Positions 2,861 through 33,180 of a stretch of 64,000 nt of DNA are shown here, piece after piece. The notes under the pieces were generated by a model. That model was given only the letters and a program-made list of their open reading frames with translations, had not been told where the DNA came from and made no database searches. Source of the DNA: a phage; assembly GCA_014161675.1 (NCBI GenBank), contig GCA_014161675.1_4760.1, one strand, 5' to 3'. The translations under genes were made by a program, and so were the position numbers. How positions within the stretch are numbered: position 1 is the first letter of the stretch; the number at the start of each line of letters is the position of its first letter.

Positions 2861-3370
2861 TCAAATAATTTTCACTGGAATACTATTAACAATCTTGTAT
2901 TGTACTTGATTGTCAGACCCCCGCCACGGCTTCTTCGTTGGCATATCTTTAATATAACGCCCATCGATGAACATGTCAACTGATTCTACAATTTTTCTTT
3001 GCTCATCATTCAATTGGTCAAGGGTATAACCAGACCATAGCCAAATATCTTTATTTGGCATCCATGATTTTACTTCATCGATGATCCGCTGTACACCCTT
3101 TAAATTGCGTTTATACAGCGGATCGCCACCTAAGAATGTTAGCCCCTGAATAAAATCAGGTCTAAGCAGATCCAGAATCAATCCCATTGTATCATCGGTG
3201 AATGGTTCCCCGTTCTTAGGATTGAGTAGGCTAGCATTAAAGCAACCATCACATGCGTGTGAACATCCGGTAACGTAAAGGGAGACTCTCACCCCCTCAC
3301 CGTTCACCATATCACAATCTTTAATATCGGCATAGCGTAGTTTGCCGTATGTATCAGAACTCATATTCAA
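2861..3370 (-). CDS. nrdG: anaerobic ribonucleotide reductase activating enzyme (radical SAM)
   Basis: Cx3Cx2C cluster (CSHACDGC), GGDPLY motif, adjacent to nrdD; matches T4 NrdG from memory. Confidence 0.9.
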   Translation of the reverse strand: MNMSSDTYGKLRYADIKDCDMVNGEGVRVSLYVTGCSHACDGCFNASLLNPKNGEPFTDDTMGLILDLLRPDFIQGLTFLGGDPLYKRNLKGVQRIIDEVKSWMPNKDIWLWSGYTLDQLNDEQRKIVESVDMFIDGRYIKDMPTKKPWRGSDNQVQYKIVNSIPVKII

Positions 3371-3548
3371 TTACCCCAAACTCGTTTACAATCTGCGCTT
3401 TATAGTAACCACCGCGAGATGCTAATAGATAAGCTGGGCTTAGGTATTCGTATTCACGGATTTCTACTTGTGCGTTTTCAGTTTCCCAAATCAGTAAAGT
3501 CCACATATTTGATTCTCCTGTAAAGTTGTATCTCGTCTTGATGAATAT

Positions 3549-19227: not shown

Positions 19228-19824
19228 TTATTTGGTAGTACCGTCAATAAAATGTTTACGGCACACAGAGACATATTTATCCTCTGCACCAACTTCTATT
19301 TGAGCACCATCGCGAATAACATTACCCTCTTTATCTACACGAAGGACCATTGTTGCTTTCTTGCCACAATGACAAATACCCTTCATTTCGACCAGTTTAT
19401 CAGCAAATGCCATTAATGCCGCAGATCCTTCAAATAGATTGCCCTGAAAGTCGGTGCGAAGGCCATAGCACAGTACAGGGATATTTGCATCATCGACAAG
19501 CGCACACAAGCCTAAAACATGCTCTTTAGTCATAAATTGGGCTTCATCTACAAATACAGCATCAGGACGCCATCGATCCGGTCTACGCTTACCTAACGAT
19601 TCACGATAAACCAAATCGAAAAGATCATCCGATTCAGTGAAGGTGATCGCTGGAGCACTTAGGCCAATTCGGGAAACAACTTCACTTTCTGAATCTCGAT
19701 TATCAATCGCTGGCTTAAGAATTAATACTCGCATATCACGTTCGGTATAGTTATAAGCACTTTGTAACAGAGAAGTTGATTTGCCAGCGTTCATAGATGC
19801 ATAGTAGAAATATAGTTGCGCCAT
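19228..19824 (-). CDS. tk: thymidine kinase
   Basis: P-loop MNAGKST, C-terminal zinc motif CHCGKKAT...VCRKH; typical TK1-type. Confidence 0.9.
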   Translation of the reverse strand: MAQLYFYYASMNAGKSTSLLQSAYNYTERDMRVLILKPAIDNRDSESEVVSRIGLSAPAITFTESDDLFDLVYRESLGKRRPDRWRPDAVFVDEAQFMTKEHVLGLCALVDDANIPVLCYGLRTDFQGNLFEGSAALMAFADKLVEMKGICHCGKKATMVLRVDKEGNVIRDGAQIEVGAEDKYVSVCRKHFIDGTTK

Positions 19825-20117
19825 TAATTAATCTCCAAAAATCCAGCAAGACCTAAACCGATATAAGTCCAGATACAAAGGAAAAAGAAGCAAACACCCA
19901 TAGCAAAGATAAATCCGCGTAGTGTCTTTGGATAACCTACCCAATATTCCCGACCATCTTCTAACCGGATCAGCTTATTTCCTTGAGAGTCCATATCAAT
20001 TACAACATGTTTATTTCTGGATTGTAACAGATATTGCTTGACAATCTCAATACCCGCCATAATAACAATAACGAAATTGAAAGTCCACATAACAAGGTTA
20101 ATGGTAGTCTCAAGCAT
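19824..20117 (-). CDS. hypothetical membrane protein
   Basis: 97 aa, two hydrophobic helices. Confidence 0.4.
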   Translation of the reverse strand: MLETTINLVMWTFNFVIVIMAGIEIVKQYLLQSRNKHVVIDMDSQGNKLIRLEDGREYWVGYPKTLRGFIFAMGVCFFFLCIWTYIGLGLAGFLEIN

Positions 20118-20352
20118 TTTCTATCACCTCCACCCAATCAGGCGTTTCCTGAAATACTCCTTCGCCTTCGTGGTGGATGCATCCTTTATTGCTACAATAC
20201 ATCCACCAATCCCACATTCCCCACGGTAAACGCTGCATATCGTCGTTACAGCAAGTGAAGACAATAGGCCAACCACATCTAACACATCGGCAGTTTTCCT
20301 TCATGTGAGCGGTATTAGGCTTCTTCATAGATGACTCCAATATAATCGACAT
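20110..20352 (-). CDS. hypothetical Cys-rich protein
   Basis: CRCVRCG...TCCNDD...CSNKGCIHHEG. Confidence 0.4.
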   Translation of the reverse strand: MSIILESSMKKPNTAHMKENCRCVRCGWPIVFTCCNDDMQRLPWGMWDWWMYCSNKGCIHHEGEGVFQETPDWVEVIENA

Positions 20353-20519
20353 TTACATTTAGGGCAATGCGGTTCTTTAATATAATACCCGTCTGTCTTT
20401 GGAACACTAACAGGAGCGGTTTTTATATTGTATTCCGTGAAACAACGAAAACAAGTTACGTTTTCCACAGACTGACGTTTCACCCAATAACCGGAATAGA
20501 GGTCATTTTTATTTGTCAT
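20325..20519 (-). CDS. hypothetical zinc-ribbon protein
   Basis: CFRCF...CPKCKC; start moved to internal Met. Confidence 0.4.
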   Translation of the reverse strand: MTNKNDLYSGYWVKRQSVENVTCFRCFTEYNIKTAPVSVPKTDGYYIKEPHCPKCKCRLYWSHL

Positions 20520-20964
20520 ATTCCACCACCACAATGTTAATGTCTGGAGTAGCAATATTAATGATTTCTTCTACACATTCCCACTCAAGGCCACCGATAC
20601 CGCAACCGATTTTAGGGATATAGAAAGGCTGTATAGCACCTTCAAAAACATCATTGAGAGTCTCAAATCCTTTCAGGATAGCACCATATTCAGCATTTGG
20701 ACCCGGTCGGAATTGGGTATAGAGATTCACCCCGCACCAGTTATAACCATTAACTTGATGCGTCCAGACACTAAACCCACCCAACTTTTCTACCTTACCG
20801 CGAGAAGTTTGCTTGTCAATTTCTAACGCTTGCGGGAACTCTTTCGCGATATCCGCAGCAATACCAGCGCCCATAGTATGAAAACAATTACAACCATGAA
20901 TTAAATGACCGTTTCCTTGTTTAAACAGGGCGATGAGATCGCCCTTTACAGTATCAATAATCAT
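20509..20964 (-). CDS. macrodomain protein, TARG1/OARD1/DarG-like ADP-ribosyl hydrolase
   Basis: VKGDL...HGCNCFHTMGAGIA and IPKIGCGIGGLEWE motifs paralleling human TARG1 (GDLF...CRMGAGIA ... PRIGCGLDRLQWE). Confidence 0.7.
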   Translation of the reverse strand: MIIDTVKGDLIALFKQGNGHLIHGCNCFHTMGAGIAADIAKEFPQALEIDKQTSRGKVEKLGGFSVWTHQVNGYNWCGVNLYTQFRPGPNAEYGAILKGFETLNDVFEGAIQPFYIPKIGCGIGGLEWECVEEIINIATPDINIVVVEYDK

Positions 20965-20979
20965 ATTATAAACCTCTAA

Positions 20980-21339
20980 TTAGTCACGGGAAGACAACCC
21001 AGCCATAAAACGGCTTAACAGTGTGTCGCGATAAGCAAAGCATAATTGCTTATCAGGGGCAGTATCACACAGGTTACGTTTTGTTTTAGCAAAGCTGGCA
21101 ATACTCAGATCCCACGCTCGATTTTTTCGTTTTTCGTCTCGACCTTGTTTGTATGCCTCGTCAAGTTCAAGTGCGATAAAATCGCTACACATGTTATCAT
21201 CATCACAGAAGGTTTTAATGATCTTTTTGTTGATCTCAAATCCTTTGTATTCGAACTTTGGATAAGGGCGCTCATTACTAGCAAGCGCACCAGCCGAGAA
21301 CATCATAGCAATCATAGCAACTATTGTCAACTTTTTCAT
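20980..21339 (-). CDS. hypothetical secreted protein
   Basis: N-terminal signal peptide MKKLTIVAMIAMMFSAGALA. Confidence 0.45.
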   Translation of the reverse strand: MKKLTIVAMIAMMFSAGALASNERPYPKFEYKGFEINKKIIKTFCDDDNMCSDFIALELDEAYKQGRDEKRKNRAWDLSIASFAKTKRNLCDTAPDKQLCFAYRDTLLSRFMAGLSSRD

Positions 21340-21346
21340 ATATTCC

Positions 21347-21937
21347 TCAATAGCGTTTAGTTTTAAGAATGCCTTTACTCTTTAGATGGTTAGCCTTTTT
21401 TAGTACGTCATCAGCATAGCCTAACCCAGCTTTATAGTTCCATCCAGCATTGTAAGAAGCTAGCGCGAGTCGGATATTACCGTTTCTAACATCCAGCCAG
21501 TATGCTAACTCATCCATCGCGTAGAATGCAGAAACCTCGCGATTCATGATAAAGTTGATAGTCTGGCGATCACTCATTTTAACACCGCGCTTTGCATTTT
21601 TCGCTTTCACCGTTTTAAGGTAATTTTGAAATAATCCATAAGCATGATGATTTTTCTTTGGTGCTAAGTTTGCACCCGCGCTTGATTCTTGCCATGCGAT
21701 ACCCGCCAGGATGTGACCTAAACCCTTTCCGTTATAGCGAATATTCGGATGGTCCTTTTTCAACTTACCGCTTTTCTCGAATTGCTCGCCGTATTGATAG
21801 GCGAAATGTAAATTATCTAGTTGGTGTGCTGTAAAGTTGTCTATCGGCGCTTTTTTGATCGGTGCGCTAGTCGATGCGTGTGTAGCACCAACGGCTAGTG
21901 ACAGACTCAATACTATCGCTTTTAGAACTTTTAACAT
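21347..21937 (-). CDS. secreted lytic transglycosylase (SLT domain)
   Basis: signal peptide; catalytic AWQESS motif, GLFQ and YNAG motifs. Confidence 0.65.
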   Translation of the reverse strand: MLKVLKAIVLSLSLAVGATHASTSAPIKKAPIDNFTAHQLDNLHFAYQYGEQFEKSGKLKKDHPNIRYNGKGLGHILAGIAWQESSAGANLAPKKNHHAYGLFQNYLKTVKAKNAKRGVKMSDRQTINFIMNREVSAFYAMDELAYWLDVRNGNIRLALASYNAGWNYKAGLGYADDVLKKANHLKSKGILKTKRY

Positions 21938-22023: not shown

Positions 22024-22446
22024 TTATTGGTCTACCTTCAAAACAACCGCCGACATTTTACCCGCCAGTCGTTTTGGATTCTCTATAATCATTCGGCAGC
22101 ATAGACCGTGATATGGCTTACCCTCTTCGATTAGATCTACTGTCATCCCGATCCACATGTTACCGTCAGTAATTTCTAATCGATTCGGTCGGTCTTCCAT
22201 TTTCAGGAAGTCGAAGATCTCCGGCAAACGAGTTTCTATCTTATTGAATAGTTCCATTGTCTTATGTTCATCGATATGACGATCGGTTAGACGGTCGATC
22301 ATATGCGGACTAAAGCGAATGAAAATATACTCACCGTAACCATTATTCAAGCACTTTTCTTTGATTTGTGCGTTAGTCTTACGCATTTCAGTTTCGAAGA
22401 ATCTGCGCAGCTTGCTACGGCGAACGTGTACATTAATTGTTTCCAT
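22024..22446 (-). CDS. regB: site-specific endoribonuclease RegB
   Basis: RRSKLRRFFETE...GRLEITDGNMW...CRMIIENPKRLAGK matches T4 RegB from memory; start at METINV. Confidence 0.8.
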   Translation of the reverse strand: METINVHVRRSKLRRFFETEMRKTNAQIKEKCLNNGYGEYIFIRFSPHMIDRLTDRHIDEHKTMELFNKIETRLPEIFDFLKMEDRPNRLEITDGNMWIGMTVDLIEEGKPYHGLCCRMIIENPKRLAGKMSAVVLKVDQ

Positions 22447-22447
22447 T

Positions 22448-22786
22448 TTATTCTCCTTTCTTAAACAAATTGCGAAGCCAGTATACAAACGGGATTTCTT
22501 TAAACTTGAATTTCTCTATAGTTAATTCTTTAGTAGCAAGATGAATACCATAAGCATCATGTGTCACGATATGCCATTTTCTATAGTCCAAATGTGAACA
22601 ACCGTCTGGATCTAGGTTAATAAGAGTTTCTCGCTCACTAGGATTATTTTTCCACAATTTTGTAATAGGATCGCACATAATTCGACCTAGCGTACCATGA
22701 ATAATCTCACAACGGTAAAGTTTTCCAGCAGTGAGATAGGCGCACCCGTCATAGTCGGTATAAACAAACACTTCTTTAACACTCAT
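22448..22786 (-). CDS. hypothetical protein, two copies of a small CSHL-motif domain
   Basis: DYDGCAYL and DPDGCSHLDYRKW repeats; start at MSVKE behind AGGAG. Confidence 0.45.
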   Translation of the reverse strand: MSVKEVFVYTDYDGCAYLTAGKLYRCEIIHGTLGRIMCDPITKLWKNNPSERETLINLDPDGCSHLDYRKWHIVTHDAYGIHLATKELTIEKFKFKEIPFVYWLRNLFKKGE

Positions 22787-22843
22787 TTTAATACTCCTTT
22801 GTTTCGATGGGGGTATATTACTACCCCCGATCATGTGTGTCAA

Positions 22844-23104
22844 CTACTTTTTCAAGATTTTTTTAATTGCGTTCCAAAGACCTTTATTCTCAGGTTGTTT
22901 TGGTTCTTCAATCAGTGTCCAGGTTCGACCGTCTAAGTGTGCACAATTTTTAAGACAAATAAAAATCTGGTGTCCCTTATCATCACGGATATAACCACTA
23001 TTCGCAAATCTTTCATGTGGTGTATATTCATACAGTGTATTTGGTGTAATATACTTGCGGTTACTATAAGGTGTCATCACATACATCATGGTACTAACTC
23101 CCAA
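22844..23104 (-). CDS. hypothetical protein, CSHL-motif domain paralog
   Basis: GYIRDDKGHQIFICLKNCAHLDGRTWTL. Confidence 0.45.
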   Translation of the reverse strand: MGVSTMMYVMTPYSNRKYITPNTLYEYTPHERFANSGYIRDDKGHQIFICLKNCAHLDGRTWTLIEEPKQPENKGLWNAIKKILKK

Positions 23105-23280
23105 CGATCACCGCGAAGATGAGAACATCCACCATCAAGAAGTATCGTAATACGATAACCTATATCATCTTTGATGTAACCGATTGTCGGTGGATTTTCG
23201 TCGTCTCGTGTCGGGGTAAAATCATACATCTTTCCAGGCGTAATATCTTGTCCTTTATTGCTATTGGTATAAACTTGCAT
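23086..23280 (-). CDS. hypothetical protein, CSHL-motif domain paralog
   Basis: GYIKDDIGYRITILLDGGCSHLRGDRWEL. Confidence 0.45.
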   Translation of the reverse strand: MQVYTNSNKGQDITPGKMYDFTPTRDDENPPTIGYIKDDIGYRITILLDGGCSHLRGDRWELVP

Positions 23281-23301: not shown

Positions 23302-24000
23302 CTAACCACGGGTATAGTGTTCCAGAACAACTGTCAGATGAATATATTCTAATAGATCTTTCCAAAAGTCAACATCTGGTTCTTCCGGCATACCGTTTTT
23401 CTTTGCCTCTTCACGCGCGAGTTTAACACGCTCGTAGAGATCTTTCAATTCTTCCCGCACATTATCAAAGGTTCTTTCTCCTAACTTACACGCTAAAATA
23501 GAAGAACGTCGCGCGAGCGGGAATTGTAGATCACCAGTTTGATAGATTTCAAGTAGCTGATAACCAACACGCAGAGCATGAGAAAGATCTTTCCAGTTAC
23601 TGAAATACTTTTCAGATTTGGCTACCTGCTTTTTGAGATAGCCAGACAAACCCCACATACCAACATGATAGAATTTATCGCGATGTGTTCGGATGTATTC
23701 CCATTCTCTGGAGGATTCAATCAACATGTTACTAGGAGCGTGCACCATGTCAATAGCGCCGATATCGCCTTTACATGCCAGATTGATAAACCGTTTTAGA
23801 CTGAACATATTAACGTCAATGTCGTCTTTGGTGTTCTTGATCCCTTGACCGCTAGTGCTTTGATCATAGTGTTCTTTCATCGATCCTAAGATAATTTCTT
23901 TCGCAGTCGGAACAAAGATACCACGATAATCTTTATCTGAATTTTCAGTATCAAGGCCGTATAAGTGAGATCCGAAGACCATTTTAACCATTGTATGCAT
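23302..24000 (-). CDS. Pol-beta-superfamily nucleotidyltransferase (unknown specificity)
   Basis: FGSHLYGLDTENSDKDYRGIF = hG[GS]x9-13D[DE]h NTase signature, followed by second acidic motif DIDVNMF. Confidence 0.55.
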   Translation of the reverse strand: MHTMVKMVFGSHLYGLDTENSDKDYRGIFVPTAKEIILGSMKEHYDQSTSGQGIKNTKDDIDVNMFSLKRFINLACKGDIGAIDMVHAPSNMLIESSREWEYIRTHRDKFYHVGMWGLSGYLKKQVAKSEKYFSNWKDLSHALRVGYQLLEIYQTGDLQFPLARRSSILACKLGERTFDNVREELKDLYERVKLAREEAKKNGMPEEPDVDFWKDLLEYIHLTVVLEHYTRG

Positions 24001-32523: not shown

Positions 32524-33180
32524 TTAAATGTTCGCGAGAATCGCGCTTTCAAATTCTTCTAATGTACCATTATTTATGATAATGGTTTCACCGTCAATAG
32601 GCAAAATTCCTTTTTCGGTGGAGTGAGTCGATACAATACCAGTATCACGCTGAATATGCAACACCTTAGCACCCATAGCACGCATGAGAGCAATTTCAAT
32701 AGGCTGACGCACATCAACCACTACAAAATACCCTTCTTCATTTTTGCGCTTCATAAACTCATCCACAAAGAGATTACACCAATAAAGCGGATTGATCAAG
32801 TTAACCATTATATCAGTACCGAGAGTGGTTAACATGAGACGAATAGACCAGACGTTATTATGTTTTTCGCCGATCTCATTAACGACCTTGTAAATCTCAG
32901 CCAGACGATCACAAGTAAAGGAACTACCGCCATACTTCGAATCTAGCATAAGCAGACACTGAATAAACCACTTATGCGCGGTATAGGTATCAATACCTAG
33001 ATCGGCTTCTCTGTCACGCCCTAACCCGTCAAAGTCAAGATAAGTCAGACCTAAGTCTGGTTGACATTCGCATAAGATTTCTTTGATCGGTGCTGCCAGT
33101 TGATAACTATGCCCATCAATTATTAACGCGGCAGTGTCTTTTCCTACTCGCTTTTTACCACAAAGTGCAATCAATTTCAT
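32524..33180 (-). CDS. 1: deoxynucleoside monophosphate kinase
   Basis: MKLIALCGKKRVGKDT P-loop start closely matching T4 gp1. Confidence 0.9.
   Translation of the reverse strand: MKLIALCGKKRVGKDTAALIIDGHSYQLAAPIKEILCECQPDLGLTYLDFDGLGRDREADLGIDTYTAHKWFIQCLLMLDSKYGGSSFTCDRLAEIYKVVNEIGEKHNNVWSIRLMLTTLGTDIMVNLINPLYWCNLFVDEFMKRKNEEGYFVVVDVRQPIEIALMRAMGAKVLHIQRDTGIVSTHSTEKGILPIDGETIIINNGTLEEFESAILANI

Follow-up and report, generated by a model that had tools for sequence, protein, structure and literature searches.

A Krischvirus orthologue of T4 tk.4 (adfM) in the tk-regB interval: a Gln-type macrodomain of the ALC1-like class with a probable role against DarT2

Introduction

The interval between tk and regB in the phage DNA analysed here (a stretch of 64,000 nucleotides, hereafter the window) contains a gene for a 151-aa macrodomain protein, and the question that it raises is from which substrate this protein would remove ADP-ribose or its substituents and which host defence would be defeated by it. 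A sequence-only reading had assigned the protein to the TARG1/DarG macrodomain clade and had proposed that it counters DarT-type or other ADP-ribosylation-based defences, or that it acts on the products of the phage's own ADP-ribosyltransferases.

Two recent bodies of work bear on this question. A T4 phage without adfA and adfN stays resistant to DarTG2, from which a further factor was predicted (PMC11825919). In a transposon-insertion screen of T4 on a DarTG2 host tk.4 was the sole significant hit, and a clean tk.4 knockout rendered the phage susceptible to this system; the new name adfM (anti-DarT factor Macrodomain) was given to the gene in a November 2025 preprint whose authors propose that Tk.4 takes the ADP-ribose added by DarT2 off the DNA (bioRxiv 10.1101/2025.11.20.689424); this evidence for tk.4 is genetic and comes from that one preprint. 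The second concerns Adpp of Vibrio phage Gary, which was shown in vitro and in vivo to be an ADP-ribose-1''-phosphate phosphatase, is called Poa1p-like in a January 2026 preprint, and lets NARP1 (NAD+-reconstitution) overcome the RES-domain defence aRES, the phosphatase being useless without Adps and Namat (bioRxiv 10.64898/2026.01.28.702374).

Results

The gene and its surroundings

The features of the region are collected in Table 1. The sequence-only reading was right in placing the gene between tk and regB, and the ORF that it described is real; its translation holds both motif strings, VKGDLIALFKQGNGHLIHGCNCFHTMGAGIA and IPKIGCGIGGLEWE, the signature regions of the 151-aa protein being VKGDL...HGCNCFHTMGAGIA and IPKIGCGIGGLEWE. 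Over the 6 kb that surround the gene, the identity to 58 Escherichia/Shigella Krischvirus phages (RB49-like Straboviridae) is 98-99%, and a 100% identical protein is annotated as 'phosphatase' in phage GoldenSnicker, the copy of phage W115 being annotated as 'macro domain protein'.

Table 1. Features of the tk-regB interval, key codons of the macrodomain gene, and NARP1 loci used for comparison (positions in the window, except for the last line, which refers to other phage records)
Feature	Position	Strand	Evidence or remark
regB endoribonuclease, left boundary of the interval	22024..22446	-	Pfam REGB_T4 E=1.3e-48; 39% identity to T4 RegB
vs.1 homologue with lytic transglycosylase (SLT) domain	21347..21937	-	52% identity to T4 Vs.1; Pfam SLT
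vs-like gene (valyl-tRNA synthetase modifier), upstream neighbour	20980..21339	-	phage W115 annotation; T4 vs position
Shine-Dalgarno GAGG	20973..20976	-	8 nt 5' of the macrodomain ATG (20964-20962), read from sequence
Macrodomain gene, tk.4/adfM orthologue, stand-alone	20509..20964	-	ATG start, 151 aa
Codons His23-Gly24-Cys25-Asn26 (loop 1)	20887..20898	-	alignments to DarG, PhiKZ AdfM, Poa1p, TARG1
Codon Gln84	20713..20715	-	position of DarG Lys80, TARG1 Lys84, SCO6735 Gln85
Codon Gly124	20593..20595	-	position of TARG1 Asp125; second TARG1 dyad residue absent
64-aa phage zinc-binding protein, downstream neighbour	20325..20519	-	Pfam Phage_zn_bind_2 E=1e-23; W115 annotation
80-aa phage zinc-binding protein	20110..20352	-	Pfam Phage_zn_bind E=1e-33
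tk, thymidine kinase, right boundary of the interval	19228..19824	-	52.5% identity to T4 Tk over 198 aa
NARP1-embedded macrodomain loci in phage records	905-4474; 3132-6138; 2129-5159

The gene is closely packed between its neighbours: it lies 15 nt from the vs-like gene on the same strand, its Shine-Dalgarno sequence follows directly after the TAA stop (20982-20980) of that gene, and its final 11 nt overlap the ATG of the gene for the 64-aa zinc-binding protein. Tight packing of this kind is typical of T4-type early-gene clusters. This 11-nt overlap couples the first of the small zinc-binding ORFs to the macrodomain gene in translation. The two small ORFs, both directly 3' of the macrodomain gene (20110-20519, minus strand), match PF23895 and PF23903, which Pfam names 'Phage zinc binding domain'. 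No Pfam match was obtained for the vs-like gene, and no darT was found among the neighbours of the macrodomain gene.

The scan for promoters and terminators returned 23 promoter-like sites where 15.5 were expected, so that it was not informative. One plausible promoter site lies upstream of vs.1 (22000-21972). The region's best sigma-70-like match (21302-21330, minus strand; TTGACA-17-TATGAT with an upstream TG, 11/12) is located inside the 5' end of the vs-like gene, and, judged from its sequence, a transcript could start there, within vs, and read into the macrodomain gene.

On the other side of regB we observed three consecutive small paralogous ORFs of 112, 81 and 64 aa (22448-23280, minus strand), which lie between it and an nrdC.11-like gene. 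They have in common the motif C(S/A)HL(D/R)x(R/K)xW, the proteins of 81 and 64 aa share 40% identity (E=2e-12), and none of the three has a Pfam match. The NrdC.11-like protein itself (232 aa; 23302-24000, minus strand) matches Pfam RlaP (E=3e-14), an RNA-repair-pathway nucleotidyltransferase of the polymerase-beta family. The corresponding region of T4 has a tRNA cluster; in the whole 64-kb window, by contrast, neither a tRNA gene nor an Rfam family at the gathering threshold was found.

A macrodomain of the ALC1-like class

The macrodomain HMM search that the sequence-only reading had recommended gave a match to Pfam Macro (PF01661) over the gathering score (E=2e-6), together with PHROG 335 ('phosphatase', E=2.5e-62) and the DarG models of PADLOC (E=1.5e-14) and NCBIfam (E=2.9e-13), which were the sole matches in those two databases. 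The DarG matches span only the macrodomain half of the models (positions 2-141, the NCBIfam model having a length of 338), and NF048014, the NCBIfam model for the DarG antitoxin, scored 49.8 bits against an equivalog cut-off of 250, so the full-length DarG architecture is not present. Sequence searches of the PDB matched M. tuberculosis DarG, BT1257, TARG1, SCO6735 and Poa1p. With these matches the macrodomain assignment stands well clear of chance.

The AlphaFold model of the protein (pLDDT 97.2) has the three-layer alpha/beta/alpha macro fold, which together with the Pfam match makes it a member of the Macro family. The best Foldseek match was TARG1 (E=7e-11, TM 0.76-0.82), and the best structural matches comprise BT1257/SCO6735, DarG, Poa1p and TARG1. 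Scored against the macrodomain classes, the protein reached 18.6 with the BT1257/SCO6735 cluster, 18.3 with M. tuberculosis DarG, 18.2 with Poa1p, 17.3 with TARG1 and 17.2 with T. africanus DarTG, and 14.1 at best with all other classes. The scores of the ALC1-like class (TARG1/DarG/SCO6735/Poa1p), 17.2-18.6 compared with 14.1 elsewhere, establish membership in that class but do not tell its members apart; the nearest neighbours in structure and sequence are likewise found there and not in the MacroD, viral or PARG classes. We are therefore almost certainly dealing with an active or ADP-ribose-binding macrodomain of the ALC1-like class, and the clade proposed from the letters alone is borne out by the Pfam, PHROG, DarG-model, PDB and structural matches.

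A Gln-type active site

Residue equivalences were read from alignments in which the offsets from chain to native numbering had been verified against the residue names used in the literature (+10 for the DarG entries, +20 for 5e3b). Asn26 aligns with the active-site Asn22 of DarG and with Asn23 of PhiKZ AdfM, and His23 with His23 of Poa1p and His32 of TARG1. Gln84, however, sits where DarG has its catalytic Lys80 (FPTK motif), TARG1 Lys84 and SCO6735 its essential Gln85, and Gly124 sits at TARG1 Asp125. The catalytic Lys and Asp that the sequence-only reading had expected, and whose absence it had taken to speak against its own hypothesis, are thus both absent, and neither the Lys84/Asp125 dyad of TARG1 nor Lys80 of DarG is present. 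The loss of these two residues does not refute a function, because T4 Tk.4 has an identical NLYTQF motif and the same Gln and Gly at the catalytic Lys and Asp positions, and SCO6735, which also lacks both residues, works through Gln85, cleaving thymidine-linked ADP-ribose on DNA and protecting against DarT (PMC9411070). With a Gln at the Lys80/Lys84 position and no Asp, the protein has the residues of the SCO6735 type, and the Tk.4 family is, on its aligned residues, best described as a Gln-type member of the ALC1-like class.

The same residues are strongly conserved. Among 108 relatives, Gly24, Asn26, Asn80 and Tyr82 are invariant, Gln84 and Thr83 are each found in 107 and His23 in 104, and position 124 is always Gly or Ala and never Asp. 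We considered that a protein without the canonical Lys and Asp might be a non-catalytic binder of ADP-ribose, a reader or a sponge instead of a hydrolase, as the CHD1L (ALC1) macrodomain has a Gln (...VAQH...) in alignment with that of BT1257. The ALC1 macrodomain is a binding module and is not known to be a hydrolase. Against this stand the near-invariance of His23, Asn26 and Thr83-Gln84, as would be expected of an active site, and the existence of active enzymes with the same motifs (Adpp; 10.64898/2026.01.28.702374) or with the Gln position in common (SCO6735; PMC9411070). A purely binding role is unlikely, and we would give the reader or sponge only the slightest chance. The simple equation of missing residues with inactivity was likewise dropped in view of the SCO6735, Adpp and T4 precedents.

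Other properties set the protein apart from the SCO6735 type, to which an electropositive DNA-binding surface belongs. The long, basic and mobile loop of that type is not present, the loop being 6 residues shorter than that of BT1257 and 5 shorter than that of SCO6735; among the 108 relatives the loop after Gln84 has 8 residues in 58 and 10-14 residues in the other 50. By net charge and pI, which are a crude stand-in for surface electrostatics, the protein is acidic (pI 5.0, net charge -7), whereas the DNA-acting domains of DarG, SCO6735 and TARG1 are basic (pI 8-9.9). Such acidity means that a small-molecule substrate would fit at least as well as single-stranded DNA. Mild acidity (pI 5.9) is found in T4 Tk.4 too, which nevertheless has the DarTG2 phenotype.

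Orthology with T4 tk.4 and a predicted role against DarT2

The gene is the syntenic orthologue of T4 tk.4. T4 Tk.4 (155 aa), whose GenBank note says that it 'contains A1pp phosphatase motif', is the sole homologue in T4 (44% identity), Krischvirus also has a single macrodomain gene, and the order regB - vs.1 - vs - tk.4/macro - small ORFs - tk is common to both. The two proteins are lone macrodomains of ~150 aa in the same vs-tk position. They agree fully in the motifs HGCNCFHTMG and NLYTQF...PGPN, and the loop that follows Gln84 is equally short in both. They differ in their phage genus (Tequatrovirus for T4), in the higher acidity of the Krischvirus protein, and in loop 2, which reads GCGIGGLEW in the Krischvirus protein and GAGIGKGNW in T4 Tk.4.

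This orthology supports the proposed role against DarT-type defence, since T4 Tk.4 is the reported anti-DarTG2 factor AdfM (10.1101/2025.11.20.689424), and the hypothesis of the sequence-only reading is thus essentially the published reading of the T4 orthologue. By analogy with T4 AdfM, we propose that the main role of the Krischvirus protein is probably to counter the DarT2 toxin of DarTG2, with a probability of roughly 60%. The ORF, the fold, the class, the residue equivalences and the orthology with tk.4 were computed in this work, and the T4 knockout phenotype and the role of SCO6735 Gln85 were taken from the literature; we infer from the two together that T4 Tk.4 and the Krischvirus protein share their substrate and that the latter acts directly on DNA. 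In this mechanism the DarT2 of the host would put ADP-ribose on thymidines in single-stranded phage DNA, and the macrodomain protein, as an 'orphan antitoxin', would strip it off so that replication could continue. Because it has no counterpart of the C-terminal DarT-binding domain of DarG, it would erase the modification and not sequester the toxin. The enzyme would bind ADP-ribose and remove whatever sits on the 1'' carbon of the ribose, probably by a chemistry of the SCO6735 type in which Gln84 would position the distal ribose for attack by water, with no Lys or Lys/Asp nucleophile.

The reversal of ADP-ribosylation on protein or RNA was also weighed, be it of phage Alt/ModB marks, in temporal control, or of marks that a host defence transferase puts on proteins or mRNA. 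Genes for two Alt-like ADP-ribosyltransferases (Pfam ADPrib_exo_Tox) and for ModB are present in a near-identical Krischvirus genome. The T4 Alt and Mod enzymes modify arginine, and TARG1-class macrodomains act on acidic-residue esters and nucleic-acid adducts and are not known to reverse arginine N-glycosides. Even though TARG1 and SCO6735 also de-modify protein substrates (PMC9411070), this argues against the Alt/Mod marks as substrate; in addition, no phenotype connecting tk.4 with Alt or Mod is reported in the papers that we consulted, and the T4 screen picked tk.4 specifically with DarTG2 (10.1101/2025.11.20.689424). We regard this explanation as improbable. In particular, the earlier suggestion of an action on products of the phage's own ADP-ribosyltransferases is less likely than an ADP-ribose-1''-phosphate phosphatase, an activity shown for the family member Adpp (10.64898/2026.01.28.702374).

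A second candidate anti-DarT gene was noticed outside the window, at 32566-33045 of phage W115, where a member of the gp30.3 family (Pfam PF08010 Phage_30_3, E=1e-38) stands beside the DNA ligase gene. Its T4 counterpart, 30.3, is AdfN, the anti-DarTG1 factor (10.1101/2025.11.20.689424; PMC11825919), and the genome therefore probably has two different anti-DarT enzymes, which suggests that anti-DarT genes are layered in Krischvirus as they are in T4.

Kinship with Adpp and the phosphatase alternative

The rival that deserves most attention arises from the relationship with Adpp. Both proteins belong to the same family, in that both fall in PHROG 335, tblastn with either of them returns essentially the same set of about 2,730 phage records, and the His23, Asn26 and Gln84 motifs are common to both. 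The identity is 33% to Adpp and 40% to the NARP1-linked member of Acinetobacter phage Aci02-2, which is near the 44% to T4 Tk.4. Moreover, loop 1 (H-x-C-N-C-x-x-[T/S]-x-G-x-G-I-A) equals that of Poa1p residue for residue in an alignment that covered the N-terminal half of Poa1p, and this includes Poa1p His23 and Ser30, the residues mutated in PDB entries 6lfs and 6lft. The label 'phosphatase' on PHROG 335 and on many GenBank records of the family points the same way. In view of the likenesses to Adpp, to the Aci02-2 protein and to Poa1p, sequence alone does not decide the substrate. The main activity might then be that of an ADP-ribose-1''-phosphate phosphatase like Adpp and yeast Poa1p, the substrate of which may come from the phosphorolysis of NAD+ by RES-domain proteins (aRES) or from RNA 2'-phosphotransferase reactions and would be converted into ADP-ribose.

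The genetic setting, however, is different. In NARP1 loci the homologue lies directly after Namat (Aci02-2) or between Adps and Namat (Vibrio phages Morian and Gary), whereas the Krischvirus gene is at the tk.4 locus and not in an NAD+ operon. Searched by tblastn, neither the window nor the remaining sequence of the near-identical phage W115 gave a homologue of Adps or Namat (all E>0.01), so that Krischvirus would have no Adps/Namat to turn the ADP-ribose product back into NAD+. This lack of NARP1 genes favours the anti-DarT2 role and argues against the phosphatase as the main one. Adpp also differs in having G-Q and a longer loop after the Gln: in an alignment with two NARP1-linked proteins, the loop of the Krischvirus protein falls 7 residues short of theirs. 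An equally short loop is found in T4 Tk.4, which has an anti-DarTG2 phenotype (10.1101/2025.11.20.689424). We consequently see a phosphatase as an unlikely main activity, although it would possibly exist in addition to the de-ADP-ribosylation of DNA, since both reactions remove the 1'' substituent.

With respect to the NARP1 loci themselves, their members come from Vibrio Thalassavirus and Acinetobacter Saclayvirus, in the order Adps - macro - Namat or Adps - Namat - macro. An RNA ligase gene is found near the macrodomain gene in the Aci02-2 and Morian loci.

Discussion

The Gln-type active site and the relationship with Adpp lead us to a tentative and rather doubtful generalization, namely that the Tk.4/Adpp family is a Gln-type 'universal 1''-eraser' which hydrolyses both thymidine-linked ADP-ribose on DNA and ADP-ribose-1''-phosphate. 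If this were true, which defence is defeated would depend on the context (tk locus or NARP1 operon) and on how long the loop after Gln84 is, the Krischvirus and T4 proteins might have both activities, and the name 'AdfM' would cover two mechanisms, that of the Gln-type Tk.4 and that of the Lys-type PhiKZ gp104.

In fact, the gp104 of PhiKZ, also called AdfM, has been shown biochemically to de-ADP-ribosylate DNA (PMC13309987), and it was considered as direct support for the anti-DarT2 role and then dropped. This protein belongs to the Lys enzymes of the DarG type (FPTK motif, Lys78) and is just 26% identical to the Krischvirus protein, and for these reasons the two 'AdfM' names refer to different subclasses and gp104 does not vouch for the Tk.4 subfamily. 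The DarG proteins of T. aquaticus and M. tuberculosis (24-29% identity) differ in the same manner, as they have FPTK with the catalytic Lys80 where the Krischvirus protein has Gln84, and, furthermore, they have a C-terminal DarT-binding domain and an adjacent darT, whereas the 151-aa Krischvirus protein has the vs-like and zinc-binding ORFs as neighbours.

The cellular proteins SCO6735 and BT1257 are stand-alone and Gln-type as well, with ~24% identity, but they have G-Q-H instead of T-Q-F and are basic (pI 8.9-9.9 vs 5.0); the loop that follows the Gln is longer by 6 residues in BT1257, and in SCO6735 the mobile loop is longer and basic, with Lys89 and Lys94 (PMC9411070). TARG1/OARD1 (29-32% identity) shares the MGAGIA and P(K/R)IGCG motifs with the Krischvirus protein, although both residues of its dyad, Lys84 and Asp125, are replaced (Gln84 and Gly124).

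Neither the gene family nor its likely role is new, given that GenBank already contains identical proteins and that the name AdfM has been assigned to the orthologue in T4. What is mildly new is that the Tk.4 subfamily has a Gln-type active site and is akin to Adpp. One family includes two experimentally supported roles, anti-DarTG2 and ADP-ribose-1''-phosphate phosphatase, and the textbook catalytic Lys is, in addition, missing from the subfamily. Neither role should be transferred by homology alone, which is of concern for annotation pipelines and for those who engineer therapeutic T4-like phages. Taken together, the Gln-type site and the Adpp kinship turn substrate specificity into an easily testable question, and one that bears on how a single fold serves two counter-defences.

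Finally, a tblastn search of 50,697 phage records found homologues of the protein in about 2,700. Outside Krischvirus the closest relatives come from Vequintavirus (Murica, phiWec191 and Bas59; 66-69% identity) and not from other T4-like phages, which have 44-50%. The Murica homologue is located at 3001-3459 of its locus piece, and the unrelated gene neighbourhood in Vequintavirus, combined with this closeness, suggests lateral exchange between both groups of phages.
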